Assembly: GCA_000004695.1 (NCBI GenBank)
Contig: CM000151.3
Location: forward strand, 8,128,001 to 8,192,000
DNA: 64,000 nt
Reading direction: 5' to 3'
Origin: Dictyostelium discoideum
Lineage: Eukaryota
Below the pieces are notes generated by a model. The model saw only the letters and a list, made by a program, of their open reading frames with translations. It did not search any database and was not told where the DNA came from. How positions within the stretch are numbered: the stretch's first letter is position 1; each line of letters starts with the position of its first letter. Positions 47,755-63,280 of the stretch are shown here, piece after piece. A program made the translations under genes and the position numbers.

Positions 47755-47928
47755 ATGAATCATCAATATATACCATCTCCAATTTATAGCGACCAAAACT
47801 CTGGTGTACACAATGTAAATAAAAGTCTTCACAATTTAAATATAAATAACGGGAATAACAATTATAATTATAGCAATAATAATTATAATAATAATATAAA
47901 TAATAATAATAATATAAATAATAATATA

Positions 47929-47971
<43 letters not shown>

Positions 47972-48112
47972 TAAATCAATATCATCAAAATCACTATGAT
48001 CAATATAGTGATAACAATTGTAACAATAGTAATAGTAATAATATAAATAATAATAATAATATAAATAATAATATAAATAATAATAATATAAATAATAATA
48101 ATAATAATATAA

Positions 48113-48162
<50 letters not shown>

Positions 48163-48710
48163 TTGTTAAAGATACCTCAATTAAATATTTCACCAAATGG
48201 CGTTGGTGGTGGTAATGGAATATCAAATGGTAATGGTGTAAATAAAATATTTTCAAAGTTGGATTTATCAAAAGTACCAAACTCTTATCAGTTGGCACAT
48301 AATAGTTCAATGCCAAATTCACCAACCTCTTCCAATATATCACCATCAACACCAACTTCAATGGCTTTAAATTTGTCATCATTAAAATCGATTTTAGATT
48401 CTCCACCAGCAGCTCCTGCTCATTCAGCTTCTTCATCTCATAATAATGATCATCGTACTTTAAATATAAATGGAAATCATCATAATAATAATAATAATAT
48501 AAATAATAATATAAATAATAATGTAAATAATAATATAAACAATGGTAATGGTAATGGTAATGGTAATGGTAATAATAATAATAATAATAATATAGGTGTT
48601 AATGGTAGTGGTAGTAGTAATAGCTCATCACCATCGATTGGGTTTAGTATACCTTTATTACAATTGAAACAGATTGGTATTAATAATCAAACTTCACCAT
48701 CACAACAATC

Positions 48711-48748
<38 letters not shown>

Positions 48749-49162
48749 CTCAACATAATGGTATACCGTTAATTAATACAACTGAAATTCATCAAAGATC
48801 AAATCCATCAAGTGCAACCAATTCACCACGTGCTTTATATTATGGTAATGAATCATCTGTTGAGAATTCACCATTTACAACACCACTTTCATCACCACGT
48901 GGTCCAATTTCACCAAGAGCAACAATTAATTCATCAATGTCAAATTTACAATCAAATATTAGAGTTGAAGAACAATGGAAAAAGATTGAATACTATGTCA
49001 ATGATTTAAGTCATTTCATCTATGAATCAATTCGTAATAAAGATTATTCAAATTTATCAGAACTAAAAGAAAAAATTGATGAAGTTGTTAATACTTCAAA
49101 AGAAATTGAAATTATTCATAGTATTGCTAAATCGTATGTTGTTGTTATTTATTTTTATAATT

Positions 49163-49240
<78 letters not shown>

Positions 49241-49761
49241 TATTTATTTATTTATTTATTTTAATATAGATTACCACCACAAACAAGAGCAAGAAAGAAG
49301 AGATCAACCAAAGCAGAAAAATTACAAAAAGATCTTATTGGTATTAAAAGATCATATGTAACTACTCCAAAGAGTAAAGGAACTTATTGTATATTCTGTG
49401 GTACTATGGAAACTCCAGAATGGAGAAAAGGTCCAGGTGGCCATAAAACGTATGTATTTAATTAATTGTTTTATTTTTTTTTTATTTTTATTTTTAAATT
49501 TAAATTTATTAACAATATCAATTTTTATTTATTTATTTTCTAAAAAAAAAAAATAGATTATGTAATGCATGTGGTTTACATTATGCTAAAAATATTAAAA
49601 AAGAGAATCAAAATAATGGTGGTTCTCCAAATCCTCAACAAAACAATGTAACTACAACAACAACTACCACCACTTCAACATCTACCAATTCACCAAATTC
49701 AAATGGAAATAACTTTTCTCCTGAAAGTGCAATGAGTGTTTCAAAATTAATTAGCGATTAA
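47755..49761 (+). CDS. GATA-type zinc-finger transcription factor with a very long poly-Asn/Gln N-terminal region; three exons, 47755..49133, 49270..49449 and about 49556..49761
   Basis: Exon 1 (about 459 codons, N/Q/S-rich) ends ...IHSIAKS at GTATGT in phase 2. Exon 2 ([60 protein letters not shown]) ends at GTATGT. Exon 3 ([18 protein letters not shown]...SKLISD*) completes a C-x2-C-x18-C-x2-C GATA finger. With the sequence as given, the exon 2/3 junction is off by one nucleotide in phase (see findings). Confidence 0.65.
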
Positions 49762-52375: not shown

Positions 52376-54370
<1,995 letters not shown>

Positions 54371-56491
54371 TAGAGTCAGTAAGAGAGAGAGAGAGAGAAG
54401 AAAAAGAGAAATTAATTTTAATTCCTCTTTTTTTGCGTTATGTGTATATATGATATCGAATTTTAATATATATAAAAAAAAAAAAAGAAAAAAAAAACCA
54501 AGAAAAAAAAAGTGAAATTTAAGATTAAAACCCGAAGACTAGTTTTATTACCATTCTTTGTCAAATTTTAATCAAATCGATTTTTTTTTTTTTTAAAAAA
54601 AAAAAATAAAACTATTTTCTTCATTTAATTCTCCTAATTATAATATTCGGGTTTATTTGTCCCCAAAAAAAAAAAAAAAAAACAAAACAAAAATAATTAC
54701 ATTTACAAAATATAAAAATTAAATAAAAAATTGTATAAAAATTTTTTTTTTTTGGGTTAAAATAAAAATAGTAAATCAGGATTTTATTTTTACTATTTTT
54801 ATTTTTTTATTTTTGTGTTTAGGAAAAATAAATTAGCATAGTTATTAATTAGTTATCCCATTTTTTTTTTTCCCGTTATGTATTTTTTTTTTTTTTTTTT
54901 AAAATAATAGCCCATATAGATAATAGGAGTGTGGTGAGTATGTGGAAATTAAAATTTTAAAATTAATTTTAATTCATTGTTTAAAATTGGCATATATATC
55001 TAATAATTTTTAATTTTTTTTTTTTTTTTTTACAATGGGGTTAATATCTTAAAATTGTGGGTGGGTTATGTAGTTTAACACTTAAAATAAGAAATTGGAT
55101 TCTAATTTCTTAATATTGTGATCGCCATACATAATGTAATTAAGGAGGGTTTCTTTTTTTGTGTTTACTTTTAGCTTTTTTTTTTGTTTTTTATTTTTAA
55201 AATTATTTTTTTAAATTTACACTTATTCTAAAATTGTTATTTTACTCATAGTTTCATTTCCATATTTTCCCCCTACTAATATATAATTATTATATATGAA
55301 TAATTAATATACAATAAGTTTTCTAAAAAAAAAAAAAAAAAATTTGAAAAAAAAAAATAAATATAAAACTTTTTTATTTATTTCTCCCTTTTTTAATATA
55401 TAATTTATATTTTCTTAATTTATTAATTATTTTTTTAATAAAAAGAAAATTATTTAACCAAATAAAAATTTGCTTTTAACAAAAAAAAAAAAAAAAAAAA
55501 AAACAATCAACAATTGTTTAATTAAATCTATAAATAAAAAAATATTTTTAATTTAAAAAATACAATTCACCTTAATAAAAAAAAAAAAAAAAAAAAAATG
55601 ACAATTATAAGTAAATATTATTAATAAATTATTTTTTTTTGTTATAATAAATTAAAATATCTAATTACATTTTTTTTTTAAAAAAAAAATAATTATAGAA
55701 TCATTAACATCAATTTCAAAAATATCAGTTAATCAAAAAGAAAAAATTAATACATCCAATAATGATAGATTAAATTTCCAAACTCAAAACGAAAATTCAA
55801 GATGGAAGATTCCTTCATACATTATATATAACGTTAAATACAGATTAATTGCATATTGTTAATAAAATTAAAAAAATGTAAAATAACGTTTAGGAAATAA
55901 ATAAATAAAATAATCTTTTTTGTACCTTAATTAACTTTTTTTTTTTTTTTTAAATAAAAAGTAAAATTTAAGATTTTTATTATTTTATTATTTTTTTTTT
56001 TTTATTTAGTTGTATATACTCTATTTACTTTCAAACCAAGATATTTTAAACTTTGAAATTTGGTTTACATTTCTAAAAGAGGAACTTCTAAAATAATTAA
56101 AATAATAATGGACAATTAGTAAAGCTTCCCCAGGGTATTAATAAAATTTTAATAAATTAGAAAACTTTTAATTTTTTACACTTTTAACAATTAGCAAGTC
56201 CAAATTAATAAAATAAAGTATTGTTCAAAATTATATCTTTATATTTTATTTTTGTTTTTTTTTTATTTTTTTTTTTTTTAAAAGGATGGGTTGGTTTGTT
56301 TTTAAAATAAAATAAAAAAAATAAAATATTTTTTAAAAGTTTATATGTTACATAATAAATATATAGATATATGTATCTCTTTTTTTTTCTTTTTTTATTA
56401 TTACTTTTTTTTTAATTTAAAAAATAAAGAAAAAAAAAAAGGATTATATATAAATTTGTTTTTTTTTTTTTTTAAATTTTTTTTTTTTTTT

Positions 56492-58149
56492 TTAGGCTTT
56501 TACTCTTGAAGAAGTTCCAGAATTTTGAGTGATAGTTTTAGTAACGATTTCAGAGGATAATTCAGAAGGAGAGGAGACATGTAAATCAACATGATATGGA
56601 TGGAATAATTGTTTAACAGTACCAGAATGAGTACCAAGTTTAGCTCTAAACATACGATTGATATCTTCACCAACGAAATCGATGAAAGCAAATTTGATGG
56701 TATCAGAGAGATCGAATCTTTCAACTTCACGAACTAAGCCATAAGCAACGATCTTTGAATTCAAATGGCCGACCAATTCATCAACACCACCATTTCCTTT
56801 AGCAATGACAGTTAAAGTGGTATCATTTTTATAACCAACTAAACACCAATTAGTGTCAGTACTATCGGATCTAACATCTTTGATTGTATCTCTAACTTGT
56901 TGTTCATCATCGAAACCAAGTGTTGAACCACTTGATTTTGGCACAGCTGATGGTGTTGTAAATTTACTACCAGCACCAGCAAATGTTTTACCGGTTGTGT
57001 TTGAACCTTGAGTTGAAGCACTTGATGAACTGTAACTTGAGGTCATACGACCACCACTACCACGTGATTGAGCATCATCACTCAATACCATTGATGCTTT
57101 ACCTGATGCTTTTGCAACGGTTTCCTCTACAATCTCTTTTGAAATTTCTGATTTAACTGTACATTTAATATCAACATGATATGGTGTAACTAACTGATTT
57201 ACAAATCCAGTATGAGTACCTAAACGTGCTCTTAACATTCTTGGAATTTCTTTAAAAAAAAAAAAAAAAAAAAAGGGTTAATAAATGTTTAGAAAAATAA
57301 TATAGTAATATTAATAATAAAATAACCACGGTTATTACCTTCACCAATCCAATTAATATAAGCAAATTTAATTGTATCACTATTATCAATTTTTTCAACG
57401 ATACGAACTAAACCATAACCAACTAAATTATCTTGTAAATTTGAGATGAGTTCATTGACACCACCATTACCTTTACCTAAGAGAATGATAGTATTTGAAT
57501 TACCACCTTCATAACCAAAGAGTACCCAATCGATATCATTTTCATCGGATCTAAATTCTTTTAAGGCTTCACGAATTGCTGGTTCATCACCTAATTTAAT
57601 TGAGTCTTTATTTGAGGATGATGGTGAAGAAACTGAACCGTATGTTGATTTTCTGAAAGAGTTGGTTGGTGAAGTGGTTGATTTTGAAGCACCAGTTTTT
57701 GCACCATTTTCATCTAAAACTTTTGAACCTGTACCAGAGATATCTTGAATTTTATTTAATACGATTTCATCAGAGATTTCATTCTTTGAGGTGATTAAGA
57801 AATCACATTGGAATGAACCCAAGAAATCTTTAACACCACCAATGGTGACAGAGATTTTACCTTTTTGAAAGATTCCAACTTTTTCTCCAATGAAATTGAT
57901 GAATGCAAATTTAACGGTTTCACTATCATCGATTTTATCAATCTTTCTAACCAATGCAAATCCAACCAAATCATCTTGTAAATGTTCAACTAATTCTGCT
58001 ACACCACCTGAACCACTTCCAACTAATTTAATCTTTTCTGATTTTGGTGATTCAAATGATAATAATACCCAATCAGTTGAGGTTGAATCATTTCTTAAAT
58101 CTGCAATTGCTGATTTACATGATGAATCGTCGACAAATTGTAAAACCAT
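56492..58149 (-). CDS. actin-binding protein with three tandem ADF-H (cofilin/coactosin-type) domains; exons about 58149..57339 and about 57249..56492
   Basis: Domain 1 (MVLQFVDDSSCKSAIADLRNDSTSTDWVLLSFE...GSGSGGVAELVEHLQDDLVGFALVRKIDKIDDSETVKFAFINFIGE...), domain 2 (IREALKEFRSDENDIDWVLFGYEGGNSNTIILLGKGNGGVNELISNLQDNLVGYGLVRIVEKIDNSDTIKFAYINWIGE | EIPRMLRARLGTHTGFVNQLVTPYHVDIK...) and domain 3 (VRDTIKDVRSDSTDTNWCLVGYKNDTTLTVIAKGNGGVDELVGHLNSKIVAYGLVREVERFDLSDTIKFAFIDFVGEDINRMFRAKLGTHSGTVKQLFHPYHVD...) share the same motif order. The single GTAATA...AG intron (phase 1) splits domain 2. The linkers are S/T-rich. Confidence 0.7.
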
Positions 58150-58376
58150 TCTTATTAATAATTATTGTCTAAAAAAAAAAAAAATAAAAAAATAAAAAAA
58201 AAATAAAAAGAAATTTTAGATAAGTAAATATTTTATAATATGATAAATATAAAAATAATAAAAAAAAAAAAATAAAAAAAATAAAAATAGAAAAAAAATG
58301 AAAAAAGAAAAAATTAAATTTAATTAAATTTAAAATAAATATAAAAATAAAAATGTTGGTTGTATGGTGATATATG

Positions 58377-58417
<41 letters not shown>

Positions 58418-58996
58418 ACTGAAATATTCAGTTTATATGAATCCAAATAAAAAAATAAAAAAAAAATAAAATGCACATTCACACAAAAATATACATTCCC
58501 CACAATTGTTTTTAATTTAATAAATTTATTATAATAATAATTTTTTTTATTTTTTTTTATTTGGAAATTTTTTTTTTTAACAAATTACACAATATAACAT
58601 ATAATATACATCTCTAAAAAATTATACTATATCTATTTTTTACCTTTTTGTAGTGTTGTGTGAATATATTAAAATAAAAAAAAAAAAAAATAAAAAAAAA
58701 AAAAAAAGCAGAAAAATAAAAAAATTAAAATCATAAAAAAAAAAAAATAAAAAAAAAAGAATAAAAATCAAAAATTTTCAAATAAAAATAAAAGCATGGG
58801 TTTGGGGTCGTTTCATATGAATTATTTTTTTATTTTTTTCAGTAATAAATTTTATTGCACTTCAACAAAGAAAAATAACCACAAACACACACACACACTA
58901 AAAATAGAATTATTTATTTTATTTTCATTTTCAATTTTCTATTTTTATTTCTATTTTTATTTTTATTTTTTATTTATTATTTTTTTATTTTTATTT

Positions 58997-60912
58997 TTAT
59001 TTTTTTTTTAAAAAATAGATATTACTTTTTTTAGATTTATTCTGCAAGTAAGTTTGTAAATCTTTATCATTAATGAAATTGTTATTTAAATTATTACAAT
59101 TTTCAATGTTAAGGTAATAGTTTATGATATGAGTTGAGTTTTGATAAAAAGCGCCAGAAATTGCATCAGTGGTGATTTTAAATTGTTTTGGATAGTATGA
59201 TAAAATTAGATCACATAGTTCAACATCACCTCTAATAAATGAACTTTTAAATAAATGATTTTTTCTTTTTGAAATTAATGAATTTAAATGTTGATCAACT
59301 AATGATTTCAAAATTTGTTGAATATTTGGTTGAATGAAAAACATCTCTAATGGTAATCTTCTAGAATCATCAATTTCCATTTCATCATCATCACTATTAT
59401 CGTCATCACCATCATAAAATTCTATATCTTCATTATTATTATCATCGTCATCATTAAATTCTATATCTTCATTATTATCATTATTATGATTATGAGCATT
59501 TTCATCTTCTTCATTATCATTATTATTATTACCATTTTTATCATCAATTTCTTCTTCTTGTTCTTCTTCTTCTTCACTATTATCAGCATACTCATTTTCT
59601 TCATTTAATACTTCTTCATGTGATCGATTAATAGTATTATAAATTCCTGGGATTAATTCTTTGAATATGTCGATTTTTGAATTAAGATTATCACCATTAA
59701 TTATTGTTGAATAAAAATGATTATATCTTGATACTTCATAAATTAAATGATTCATAAATTCAATATTGAATTTTGAATCCATAGAATGAAAAGCTAGAGT
59801 GGGTCCAAAAACGTGATTATTTGAAATTAAATCATGGTAATTTTCGTGCATGAACTTTAGATTTCTATAGTTGCTATAGATTTCTTCTCCTCGGTAAAAA
59901 CCAATAATACTATTACTGAGTTGAATATTCCCATTGAAATTATCCAATAGGTATCTTGAAATTTCAAATTTATGACAAAGTAGTGAATTTTGAAATAAGA
60001 TATCAATGAAATTGTTTGAATAATAGTTTAATTCAATTAATTTCTTAATTTCTTCAATTTTCATTATTTTACATGAATAATATAAAACATCTTTTGATAA
60101 TTTAAATTGATTAATAGTATTTAATGGTTTAAAAAATATTAATTTATTATTATCATCATCATCATTATTCCATTGAGTTGAAAATGTTGAATGAGATGGT
60201 GGTGGTGGTGATGATGAACCAAATTGATCATTTTTAGTAGGTTTCTTTAAATGAAATGGTGAATTATAAGTGAATTGTTCATTTCTAATATTTTGATAAT
60301 GTTGACAATTTAATTGTATCCATTGTAAATATTTAAAGAATGAATCAACTCTTCTAATTTCTAAAAGGAATTGTAAATCATAATTGAATTGGTCGTGGAA
60401 ATAATCAGATTTTAGAGAAGTTTTTGAATTATTTGAAAAAGCATGGTTATATAAATTAATTGAAAATGATTCAATTAATTTATTTAAAATGTCAAGGAAT
60501 GAGCCAACTTTTTCATGGTTTTCATTTTCCCCAATTACATAATCAAATGAGAAATCATTTAAATTAAAACATTTAAATAAATTAACACCAAAAACAGTGT
60601 GAGTGCTATTATTACCACTAAACTCACTACCATTTAAAACTCCACGATTAAAAATATCAATAAAAACTTTTATACCAGGTAAATTGATAATATACTTTGA
60701 AAATTTTGGAGATCTAATATTAAGATAAAAGAAAACATGACATATACCATGATCAATTGTAATTGAGTATTCACTTAATAAATTATGGACATATCTAACT
60801 TGATCAATTTTAACACCTTTGGTTTTAATTAATATTAAAAAGAAAAAATTTAAAATCCTAGTAATAACATAATCTTCAGTATCTGCATCTTCTTCAAGTG
60901 ATTCTTCAAAAC

Positions 60913-60971
<59 letters not shown>

Positions 60972-62749
60972 TTATGAAATTTCTTTAAAAACAATTCAAT
61001 AATTTCAATGAAATTATCTATATCAATAAAACCATTATCATGACAATAATATTGGATTTGTTGGTATATATCAAAGATTTCATCGGATTTCTCGGTATTG
61101 TTGTGTCGTATATTTAATTTTGTAATTGTTGAGATTGAATCCATACTATTTATAAAAAGTCTTAGTGATTTAAAACTTAATGAAAAAACATAAATTAAAA
61201 ATCTATGGTTGATATCAGTTTGTGAGAATAATTGAAGATTTAATTTGAAATTTGGTGGGATGATAATGTTTATTAAAAAATGTCTTAAAAATAGACACAA
61301 TTCACCACTAACTTCAAAACTTTTAAAACCATTATCATTTAAATAGTTTAAAACTTTCATTCCATCTTCATTTGTCATATTTGGTAAACCATTCTTTAAC
61401 AATAGACAAATGGTTTTATCTACTGAAGCTATTAAGTCCAATGAATCTATTTTTTTTAAAGTTTCAATATCACATTTTAAAATTGAATTAAAGTATAGCT
61501 CATTTCTTTGTTCATCCATATATATATCATCAACATAATATTTAAAATCGATAATTTCATTTGTAGTAGTATCTCTAATAACTTCACAATTATACATACT
61601 TTGAAATTGATTAAAAAATATTTTACTAAAATTAATTTTTAAATCTTTAATAAAAAATTCTAATAATGCCTTTTTTTCATTTCTTGCATAAATCAATTCT
61701 AATTGTTCTTGTAAATACTTGGTGTTAATTTCACTTTCTTTTTCACAACTATAAAATCTTATATATAAACTTGAAAGTGATAAAAGAGTTTCCATTGAGC
61801 AATCTGCCTTTATTTTAGAAATTATAGCATGTTTTTCATTTTCTGTATTACATATAACATTTAAATCAATTAACTTTTTAATTACTTTAAAAGAATTTAA
61901 AAACCTTGTACAATGATTTAATTCAATGAATTGGTAACCTTTTTGTTTTATAGGTTTCACTTGAGTTAATGCTTCGAAAAGTGATGGTCTGGGTGGTGGT
62001 GTAGGTGGTGGCTCTGTTGTTGGCGCTGAATAAAGAATTGGATTGTCTAATATGAATTCCATAAATTCCAATTCATTTGCAAGTGATAATGATGTAATTT
62101 TAAATTCATTTGTTATGAAATCAAAACCATAATTATCATTAATTAAAGCACGTGTTGAATTTAATAATTCTTTAACAATTGTCAAGTTTTTTGTTTTTTT
62201 AAATGCCAATTCAAAAGACGACTCTTTAACAAATAAATTGTATGGTTGATTCGTTAAAATTCTAAGTGCTTCAACATTTTCATATTCAATTGCTAATTCT
62301 GTTAAATCACAACATTCAAATTGATTTCTTTTATTTTTTAAAAGCAATTGAAATATTTCTATCAATTTTTGATTTTCAACTTTTTTTTGAACTTCAAATT
62401 GATTTTTCTTTTCAGTTTCTTTTAAATTTGATCTTTCAATAATTTTATCATCATCATATCTCTTTAAAAATAATAAAAAAAATGATTTAACTGATTCTTT
62501 TGTAATTTCAATATATTCATTTAATTTGATTTTTTCAATTAAGACTTCAAATAATTTATTTTTTATCATCAATTCAAATGAGTAGGTTTCTTTAATACTA
62601 CACTTATTGTCAATATTAATTTCAGATGGATCAATATATTGGACCCATTCTGTATTTTTAATAATATAAAAAATTTCATTAAATATATATTTATTTCTAA
62701 AAACTTTCCAAAATAAAAATTCTATTCTATCATTATTATCTTCATCCAT
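58997..62749 (-). CDS. large (~1250 aa) hypothetical protein with a conserved N-terminal LFWKVF..Y.FNEIF domain, a poly-Asn run and an acidic D/E/N-rich C-terminal region
   Basis: The ORF is open to 62923, but the first 58 codons are poly-T/A promoter-like sequence. The likely start is MDEDNNDRIEFLFWKVFRNKYIFNEIF (ATG at about 62749), which mirrors the start of the divergent neighbour at 63422. No introns detected. It has an N19 tract and a (D/E/N)-rich block (EDIEFNDDDDNNNEDIEFYDGDDDNSDDDEMEIDD). Confidence 0.6.
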
Positions 62750-63280
62750 TTTCTTTGAGACTTGACTATTTGGTTTTTTTTTTTTTTTATTTTTTTTTTT
62801 GTTCGGCCGAATTGTAAAAAAAAAATTAAAAAAAATAAAAAATAAAACAAAATTAAAAAAAAGAAATAATTTGGAAAAAAAAAAAAAAAAAAAAAAAATT
62901 ATTTTATTTAACTTTTTAACCAAAGAAAAAAGGATAATTTATTTATTTTTTTTTTAATTTTTTTAAATTCATTTTTATACACACCCGGTGTGTTTTTTTT
63001 GCAGTCAAAAAAAAAAAAAAATTAATAAAAAAAAAAAAATCATTTATTTTTTGACTTAAAACATTTTTACTTTTTTCAGAAGTGTGCTACATCCAAAGGT
63101 TGTTTAAATCTCAAGCTAACAAATCTTTTATTGCATCTGGGTGTGTATAAAAATGTATTTATTATGCGCCATTTTTCAATAAAAATTTTGTTTTGGTAAT
63201 TTTCACCATGTTGTAAAAAAGTTAAAAAAAAAAAAATAAAAGTAAAAAAAAAAAAAAAAATAAAAAAAATAAAAAACCCA

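Follow-up and report, generated by a model that had tools for sequence, protein, structure and literature searches.

In reviews and primary papers, proteins built on the ADF-H domain fall into five classes, with one or two such domains each. Coactosin (COTL1; coaA in Dictyostelium, EhCoactosin in Entamoeba) is a single domain of ~140-150 amino acids (aa). Abp1, drebrin and mAbp1 (HIP-55) join one ADF-H domain to helical or Pro-rich regions, and Abp1 also carries an SH3 domain. Twinfilin, the sole characterised family in which a linker connects ADF-H domains in tandem, has two cofilin-like domains that bind G-actin and barbed ends, followed by a C-terminal tail. A looser analogy is offered by the gelsolin superfamily, where actin-binding domains of related fold are repeated three times (severin, CapG) or six times (gelsolin, villin); these belong to another domain family, are packed and are regulated by Ca2+. 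Here we describe a gene from a 64,000-nucleotide (nt) window of the Dictyostelium discoideum nuclear genome (assembly GCA_000004695.1, contig CM000151.3, forward-strand positions 8,128,001 to 8,192,000) whose product fits none of the five textbook ADF-H classes. The gene, DDB_G0277615, lies on the minus strand of the window. Its product is predicted to consist solely of three independently folded ADF-H domains, held together by two disordered, basic, Ser/Thr-rich linkers. This architecture is not a one-off: it belongs to a wider family with two to seven domains.

The DDB_G0277615 gene and its product

Exon 1 (57339..58149, minus strand, 811 nt) starts with the ATG codon at 58149-58147, encodes residues 1-270, supplies one base (the first) of codon 271, and ends at 57339 in the sequence '...AAT TGG ATT GGT GAA G'. 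It is followed by an 89-nt GT..AG intron (57250..57338, minus strand), whose ends read GTAATAAC...TTTAAAG. Because exon 1 is 811 nt long, the intron is in phase 1; it splits the Glu271 codon in 'NWIGE|EIPRM' of the second ADF-H repeat. Exon 2 (56492..57249, minus strand, 758 nt including the TAA stop codon at 56494-56492) encodes residues 271-522. Joining 58149..57339 to 57249..56492 produces a 1569-nt frame for a 522-aa, 56-kDa protein, which at every one of its residues is identical to D. discoideum AX4 XP_001134588.1 (DDB_G0277615, UniProt Q75JY8). This entry is labelled 'hypothetical protein' at NCBI and 'Coactosin' in UniRef, the latter being an automatic name.

Expression of the gene is documented by L002, a 1613-nt Logan RNA-seq contig (SRR17156089) containing an uninterrupted 522-codon frame. 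The contig aligns at 100% to 58170-57339 and 57252-56495, omitting the intron exactly, and its bases 26-46, which align to 58170-58150, define the RNA-supported part of the 5' untranslated region (58150..58170, minus strand). Since L002 spans both exons and skips the intron, the two exons form one transcript. Thus, DDB_G0277615 is a real, expressed gene, spliced to a single mRNA. An artefact of the gene model, in which two neighbouring genes (57289..58149 and 56492..57238) had been wrongly fused and each product carried at most two domains, might be suspected from the long ATG-initiated reading frame present in each exon alone and from the existence of 248-aa and 286-aa Logan calls, which come from unspliced contigs. 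It can be dismissed with near certainty. The spliced contig joins the exons precisely at the GT..AG sites into one frame and thereby refutes a two-gene model, which also fails because repeat 2, without splicing, would be cut into halves. Furthermore, >100 homologues, many known from transcriptomes, likewise have all three domains in a single product. A sequence-only reading of this DNA had already assigned the two exons to one transcript, and the RNA contig bears this out. That reading had also placed a phase-1 intron inside repeat 2, correctly, but at a position said to be equivalent among the repeats; no counterpart was found in repeats 1 and 3.

Three complete ADF-H domains had likewise been proposed for this protein, and a Pfam scan yielded three matches to PF00241 (Cofilin_ADF) rather than one or two. 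Domain 1 (D1) comprises residues 1-141 (57727..58149; E = 8.6e-24). Domain 2 (D2; E = 1.5e-24) is divided by the intron into an exon-1 part (residues 182-271, 57339..57606) and an exon-2 part (residues 271-322, 57095..57249), the latter holding the long helix 'PRMLRARLGTHTGFV'. Domain 3 (D3) comprises residues 379-517 (56510..56926; E = 5.4e-23), and only five residues follow it. When the segments were scanned separately, the matches reached 81-86 bits (84.1 for D1, 86.5 for D2 and 81.5 for D3) against a cut-off of 22.4 bits, covering positions 1-125, 1-124 and 2-124, respectively, of the 125 in the profile; scores of this size lie well above what chance would give. In the 522-aa protein no Pfam family other than PF00241 scored above threshold, and no SH3 domain was found. 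The repeats are 38% (D1-D2), 37% (D1-D3) and 50% (D2-D3) identical, D1 being the most divergent. The claim that all three repeats share the same motif order holds except for the 'LGTH..PYHVD' half of repeat 1, which in D. discoideum reads 'KISVTIGGVKDFLGSFQCDF'; in most other species, repeat 1 has retained '..SVHxGxVKxFIGQxHVD'.

The domains are acidic (isoelectric point, pI, 4.6-5.2), whereas the linkers are basic, with a pI of ~10 and two Pro residues each. Linker 1 (residues 142-181, 57607..57726) and linker 2 (residues 323-378, 56927..57094) contain 42% and 41% Ser+Thr, in agreement with their earlier description as Ser/Thr-rich. The lengths of the linkers are under constraint: in 66 complete homologues linker 1 measures 26-43 residues (median 34) and linker 2 measures 37-79 (median 52.5); pooled, these linkers are rich in S, A, T, G and K and net basic. 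An AlphaFold2 model built on a 58-sequence homologue alignment shows three domains, mostly with a predicted local distance difference test score (pLDDT) >90 and each ordered H-E-E-H-E-E-H-E-H, in which the features of the ADF-H fold (a central mixed sheet, flanking helices and a long helix past strand 4) are all present. The pLDDT drops below 50 over residues 142-180 and 324-378, and the overall predicted template-modelling score (pTM) is 0.40. The low linker pLDDT and the low pTM therefore suggest three independent domains on flexible tethers, with no fixed packing between them.

Relationship to the known ADF-H classes

Searches of PDB sequences with single domains returned only mAbp1 (1x67), Entamoeba coactosin (4liz), human and mouse coactosin-like protein (CLP) and drebrin (5y1z); actophorin appeared at E = 0.11 only. 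The best match of D2 was the mAbp1 ADF-H domain 1x67 (2.8e-16) and that of D3 was Entamoeba coactosin 4liz (3.4e-11). A profile of the family ranked 4liz (1.2e-25) and 1x67 (2.4e-25) first, followed by CLP (~2e-20), drebrin (8e-20), yeast Abp1 (9e-10) and, at 1e-7 to 1e-3, actophorin and the cofilins; neither twinfilin nor GMF was found among PDB sequences at E<=1. Foldseek searches aligned the modelled domains with coactosin, Abp1, drebrin, cofilin and actophorin structures at TM-scores (TM) of 0.78-0.88. The coactosins 4liz, 1vfq and 1t3y came first (TM 0.86-0.88, root-mean-square deviation, rmsd, ~2 Å), then mAbp1, drebrin and yeast Abp1, and then the cofilins. The profile E-values and the agreeing Foldseek ranking therefore place the domains, by sequence and by fold, in the coactosin/Abp1-drebrin branch of ADF-H. 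Coactosin and Abp1/drebrin score alike against the family profile, and in a neighbour-joining (NJ) tree the family forms its own group beside both. Of the earlier suggestion that the protein is coactosin- or twinfilin-like, the first half is upheld by profile E-values of 1e-25 to 1e-20 and the second falls. A closer affinity to twinfilin, GMF or cofilin was ruled out by the PDB sequence and profile searches.

The whole protein departs from each class in its own way. By similarity it is not an ADF/cofilin, as cofilins and actophorin trail the coactosin/Abp1 matches (1e-7 to 1e-3 vs 1e-25). It resembles coactosin in domain type and in the lack of any other module; it keeps the equivalent of CLP Lys75 and a C-terminal 'SG' motif, which is 'GG' in CLP. 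However, at 522 aa it is not a single domain but a multivalent chain of three, joined by linkers and each 23-29% identical to CLP and EhCoactosin. The ADF-H domain of Abp1, drebrin and mAbp1 is as close by sequence as that of coactosin, but nothing here corresponds to their helical or Pro-rich regions or to the SH3 domain of Abp1: PF00241 stands alone and the linkers are Pro-poor. Twinfilin shares the tandem arrangement; it differs in domain number, in the absence of any sequence match and in its tail, for which there is no equivalent after D3, and its biochemistry is expected to differ from that of the DDB_G0277615 product.

A twinfilin-like function, with ADP-G-actin and/or terminal barbed-end protomers as the supposed targets of the tandem domains and with monomer sequestration, filament capping or faster depolymerisation as the outcome, deserves consideration all the same, twinfilin being the only precedent for tandem ADF-H domains. 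By E-value, the nominal top Foldseek match was in fact twinfilin in an uncapping complex (7ccc_B), and the long-helix motif 'RM.RA.LGTH.G' is strongly kept within the family; the long helix is the G-actin-binding element of cofilin and twinfilin (PMC2447895). Yet 7ccc_B ranks top because two domains align simultaneously, and the superposition is poor (rmsd 21.9 Å, TM 0.22-0.33). The sequence searches, with single sequences and with the profile alike, favour coactosin and Abp1 over twinfilin, and the five residues past D3 leave no room for a twinfilin-type tail. Moreover, D. discoideum has a separate twinfilin gene. Taken together, these points make a twinfilin-like activity improbable.

A family of tandem arrays in Amoebozoa

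A word-indexed search identified 140 relatives of the DDB_G0277615 product. With D3 alone this type of search gave two matches and was uninformative; an exhaustive HMMER search with D3 was used instead. It retrieved 1187 cluster representatives at E<=1e-3, of which 167 reached E<=1e-30, and the top 150 were almost all multi-domain, with 2-6 matched stretches. Scored with a domain hidden Markov model built for this analysis, the apparently complete proteins comprised 76 with two domains, 106 with three, 10 with four, two with five and four with six. The largest arrays seen, P0302 (1175 aa) and P0306 (1183 aa), come from metatranscriptome/Logan contigs and are built entirely of seven tandem ADF-H domains. 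The DDB_G0277615 product thus shares its make-up with an old amoebozoan family of tandem arrays, which contain only coactosin/Abp1-type ADF-H domains, at least two of them, joined by short disordered linkers.

All family members that bear an organism name are from Amoebozoa and cover the phyla Evosea, Discosea and Tubulinea. The restriction to Amoebozoa rests on these named matches, most matches being metatranscriptome contigs and one six-domain protein coming from an MMETSP transcriptome; members outside Amoebozoa may exist. Among Dictyostelia the family is represented in Dictyostelium species, Tieghemostelium, Cavenderia, Heterostelium, Acytostelium and Synstelium, and further named members are from Physarum, Planoprotostelium, Protostelium, Phalansterium, Pelomyxa and Mastigamoeba. 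Named arrays were found in Vermistella (three and four domains), Dermamoeba and Stenamoeba (four and five each) and Vermamoeba (six). The conservation of the architecture in >100 complete three-domain proteins across the three phyla implies selection on the multi-domain state.

The individual repeats keep their identity over considerable distances. When each domain was matched to its nearest counterpart in another three-domain protein, that counterpart held the same position in 73/79 cases for D1, 74/79 for D2 and 70/79 for D3. According to identity matrices, orthology to Heterostelium and Physarum is clearly position-specific, and for D1 it reaches as far as the Archamoebae. In the NJ tree, a simple and weak one of 142 columns, D1 forms a clade across Evosea (Dictyostelia, Physarum, Planoprotostelium, Pelomyxa, Mastigamoeba) with a bootstrap of ~50%, and D2 and D3 form a joint group, separated only inside Dictyostelia and Physarum with bootstraps of 22-23%. 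A strict one-to-one orthology of D2 and D3 over all Amoebozoa is not supported by this tree. In the tree, the arrays of Vermistella, Dermamoeba and Vermamoeba, along with a marine four-domain protein, look like independent expansions. About 75 complete proteins, ~325 aa long, resemble P0105 of Physarum polycephalum (328 aa) and make up a separate two-domain subfamily with it. In P0105, the sole member compared in detail, domain 1 is nearest to D2 (56% to Physarum D2) and domain 2 is nearest to D3 (50%), and the NJ tree likewise places one with D2 and the other with D3; Physarum has both two-domain and three-domain genes.

A trace of how the repeats arose is preserved in the Planoprotostelium fungivorum orthologue (P0025). 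There, all three repeats contain a GT..AG intron at the same position and in the same phase (phase 2), splitting the codon for the invariant Trp (TG|G) of 'TDW' (MDYQ01000131.1, ~1580-1640, 2370-2410 and 3120-3160 of L003). The shared position and phase point to an origin of the repeats in tandem duplication of a unit in which the intron was already present. D. discoideum has lost these 'TDW' introns. Its own intron, which splits the fifth codon of 'WIGEE' in phase 1, lies 2 nt, within one codon, from the position of an intron in Heterostelium album (GL290985.1, ~2370-2462 of L004), which follows 'WTGEN' in phase 0. Either a single old intron has slid, or introns were gained twice independently.

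Two annotations in the family call for comment. The D. purpureum orthologue is represented by two partial models, DICPUDRAFT_91304 (D1-D2, 333 aa) and DICPUDRAFT_12292 (D3, 125 aa); the models (P0011 and P0132) share a 144,503-bp contig and probably represent one three-domain gene whose annotation was split. In the cluster of the six-domain Vermamoeba vermiformis protein P0195, the JGI/IMG names of several proteins (members P0286 and P0288-P0291) read 'ssRNA-specific RNase YbeY (16S rRNA maturation enzyme)', which, on proteins made of ADF-H domains only, is evidently a misannotation.

The existence of six-domain as well as three-domain forms recalls gelsolin on the one hand and severin and CapG on the other, and it raises the thought that severing or capping of the gelsolin/severin type might have been built from ADF-H domains. 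The two folds are structurally related, and the three-domain model did retrieve gelsolin G1-G3, CapG, adseverin and villin V1-V3 in Foldseek. Nevertheless, these alignments are poor (TM 0.1-0.2, rmsd ~20 Å) and no sequence similarity was found. The domains, with their disordered linkers and low pTM, resemble beads on a string rather than a packed array, and the family includes arrays of two, four, five and seven domains as well. In addition, the nearest relatives, coactosin and Abp1, do not sever filaments (PMC2447895). We consider a gelsolin-like activity very improbable.

Databases already contain what is observed here, as the gene is annotated and any Pfam scan reveals its three domains. 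Full-text literature searches returned nothing relevant on a three- or multi-domain ADF-H protein, on ADF-H domains together with Amoebozoa or on DDB_G0277615, but an earlier mention may exist. Thus, gene and domain are known, and what is apparently undescribed is the architecture, an uncharacterised class that is broadly conserved in Amoebozoa.

Actin-site residues and a possible mechanism

In HMMER alignments, human CLP Lys75 (in 'SKRSKFALITWIGE') corresponds to Lys80, Lys261 and Lys456 of D1, D2 and D3. Coactosin carrying the K75A change loses F-actin binding (PMC8256272, citing Provost et al. 2001). Residue conservation was counted in 79 non-redundant three-domain proteins. The Lys75 column holds Lys or Arg in all 79 D1 sequences, in 75/79 D2 and in 77/79 D3 sequences; for the basic residue that opens the long helix (the Arg column of CLP 'LQRAK'), the corresponding counts are 77/79, 79/79 and 79/79. 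As both columns are conserved, all three repeats look constrained at the known binding surface.

On balance, we lean toward multivalent, non-severing binding of filament sides by the DDB_G0277615 product, whose three weak sites would together confer avidity, with the filaments being stabilised against cofilin and/or bundled. Each domain would bind the side of F-actin weakly, in the manner of coactosin and Abp1, without severing filaments or sequestering monomers; Abp1 is a known F-actin side-binder (PMC2447895). When stretched, the two tethers measure ~14 nm (~40 residues) and ~20 nm (~56 residues). Sites of the cofilin/coactosin type lie 5.5 nm apart along one filament strand. Since tethers of such length would reach neighbouring protomers, one molecule could occupy two or three adjacent ones, and the whole protein would be expected to have a high avidity for F-actin and a much firmer hold on it than coactosin has. 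With cofilin's sites occupied, filaments would be stabilised against cofilin, and/or capping would be disturbed. COTL1 is a competitor of cofilin on F-actin and has a protective effect on filaments (PMC3890291), and coactosin works against capping (Röhrig et al. 1995, cited in PMC8256272); the expected net effect would therefore be that filaments are stabilised or protected. If the domains engaged different filaments, cross-linking or bundling would result. The basic linkers may contact acidic actin electrostatically and, more speculatively, their many Ser and Thr residues could be sites of phosphoregulation.

Several observations weigh against this view. The mechanism is drawn from homology, for the DDB_G0277615 product as for the whole family, and actin binding by each domain may be presumed from homology plus two conserved positions. 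The long helix of D. discoideum D1 diverges, reading 'VGIFQKGKISVTIGG' vs the family consensus 'VPRMQKARISVHxG', and this domain may differ in its binding or lack it altogether. The coactosin of Entamoeba binds G-actin as well, and exclusive specificity for F-actin is thus not assured. Finally, decoration of single filaments and bundling of several may be equally compatible with the present results.

A further point of this kind is that drebrin, from the same branch, has its ADF-H domain bound to a non-actin partner, ZMYND8, in structure 5y1z. The protein might accordingly be imagined as a scaffold or adaptor, at least one of whose ADF-H domains would bind a partner other than actin, for example the Arp2/3 complex as GMF does, and link it to filaments. 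Non-actin partners of ADF-H domains include 5-lipoxygenase, for CLP, besides ZMYND8. The separate clade of D1, with a distinct signature conserved across Evosea, is compatible with such sub-functionalisation. Against it stand the basic actin-site residues, kept in all three domains, the failure to detect GMF by sequence and the lack of an SH3 domain or other Pfam module; an acidic Arp2/3-activating motif was not seen either when the D. discoideum linkers were read by eye, no motif scan being made. Arrays of up to seven near-equivalent domains are also better suited to gripping a polymer at many sites than to recruiting a set of different partners. We regard the adaptor as unlikely, placing it, as far as can be judged by inference, just behind twinfilin-like monomer or barbed-end activity and ahead of gelsolin-like severing.

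Returning to multivalent side binding, a bolder extension would make the arrays of two to seven coactosin-type domains a sixth, functionally distinct class of ADF-H regulators, so far confined to Amoebozoa. Repeat number and linker length would set the count of consecutive protomers clamped. As a high-avidity 'staple', the protein would bundle filaments or protect them from cofilin, a mode of action that no characterised ADF-H protein has. We offer this generalisation tentatively and would sooner expect it to need revision than to hold in full. ADF-H is one of few core actin-binding modules, to which a conserved family built only from two to seven coactosin-type domains would add a class. The family occurs in the organisms (Dictyostelium, Physarum and amoebae) in which much actin biochemistry was first worked out. 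It would provide a natural test of what multivalency does to a weak, non-severing binder of filament sides, one made feasible by Dictyostelium genetics and imaging. Should the protein turn out to be an ordinary F-actin binder, it would be an architectural curiosity in an already annotated gene.

As to the surroundings of DDB_G0277615, the long flanking open reading frames at 58997-62923 (minus strand) and at 52376-53524, 47755-49269 and 53574-53978 (plus strand) had no Pfam match at E<=1e-3 and provided no functional context; the one directly upstream of the gene encodes 1308 aa. The region is very AT-rich; G+C makes up ~13-16% of the flanking DNA and 30-36% of the coding sequence. Very long homopolymer T/A runs (up to ~50 nt) occur at 58340-58440, directly upstream of the 5' untranslated region, and at 56440-56500, past the stop codon; such runs are typical of Dictyostelium intergenic DNA.

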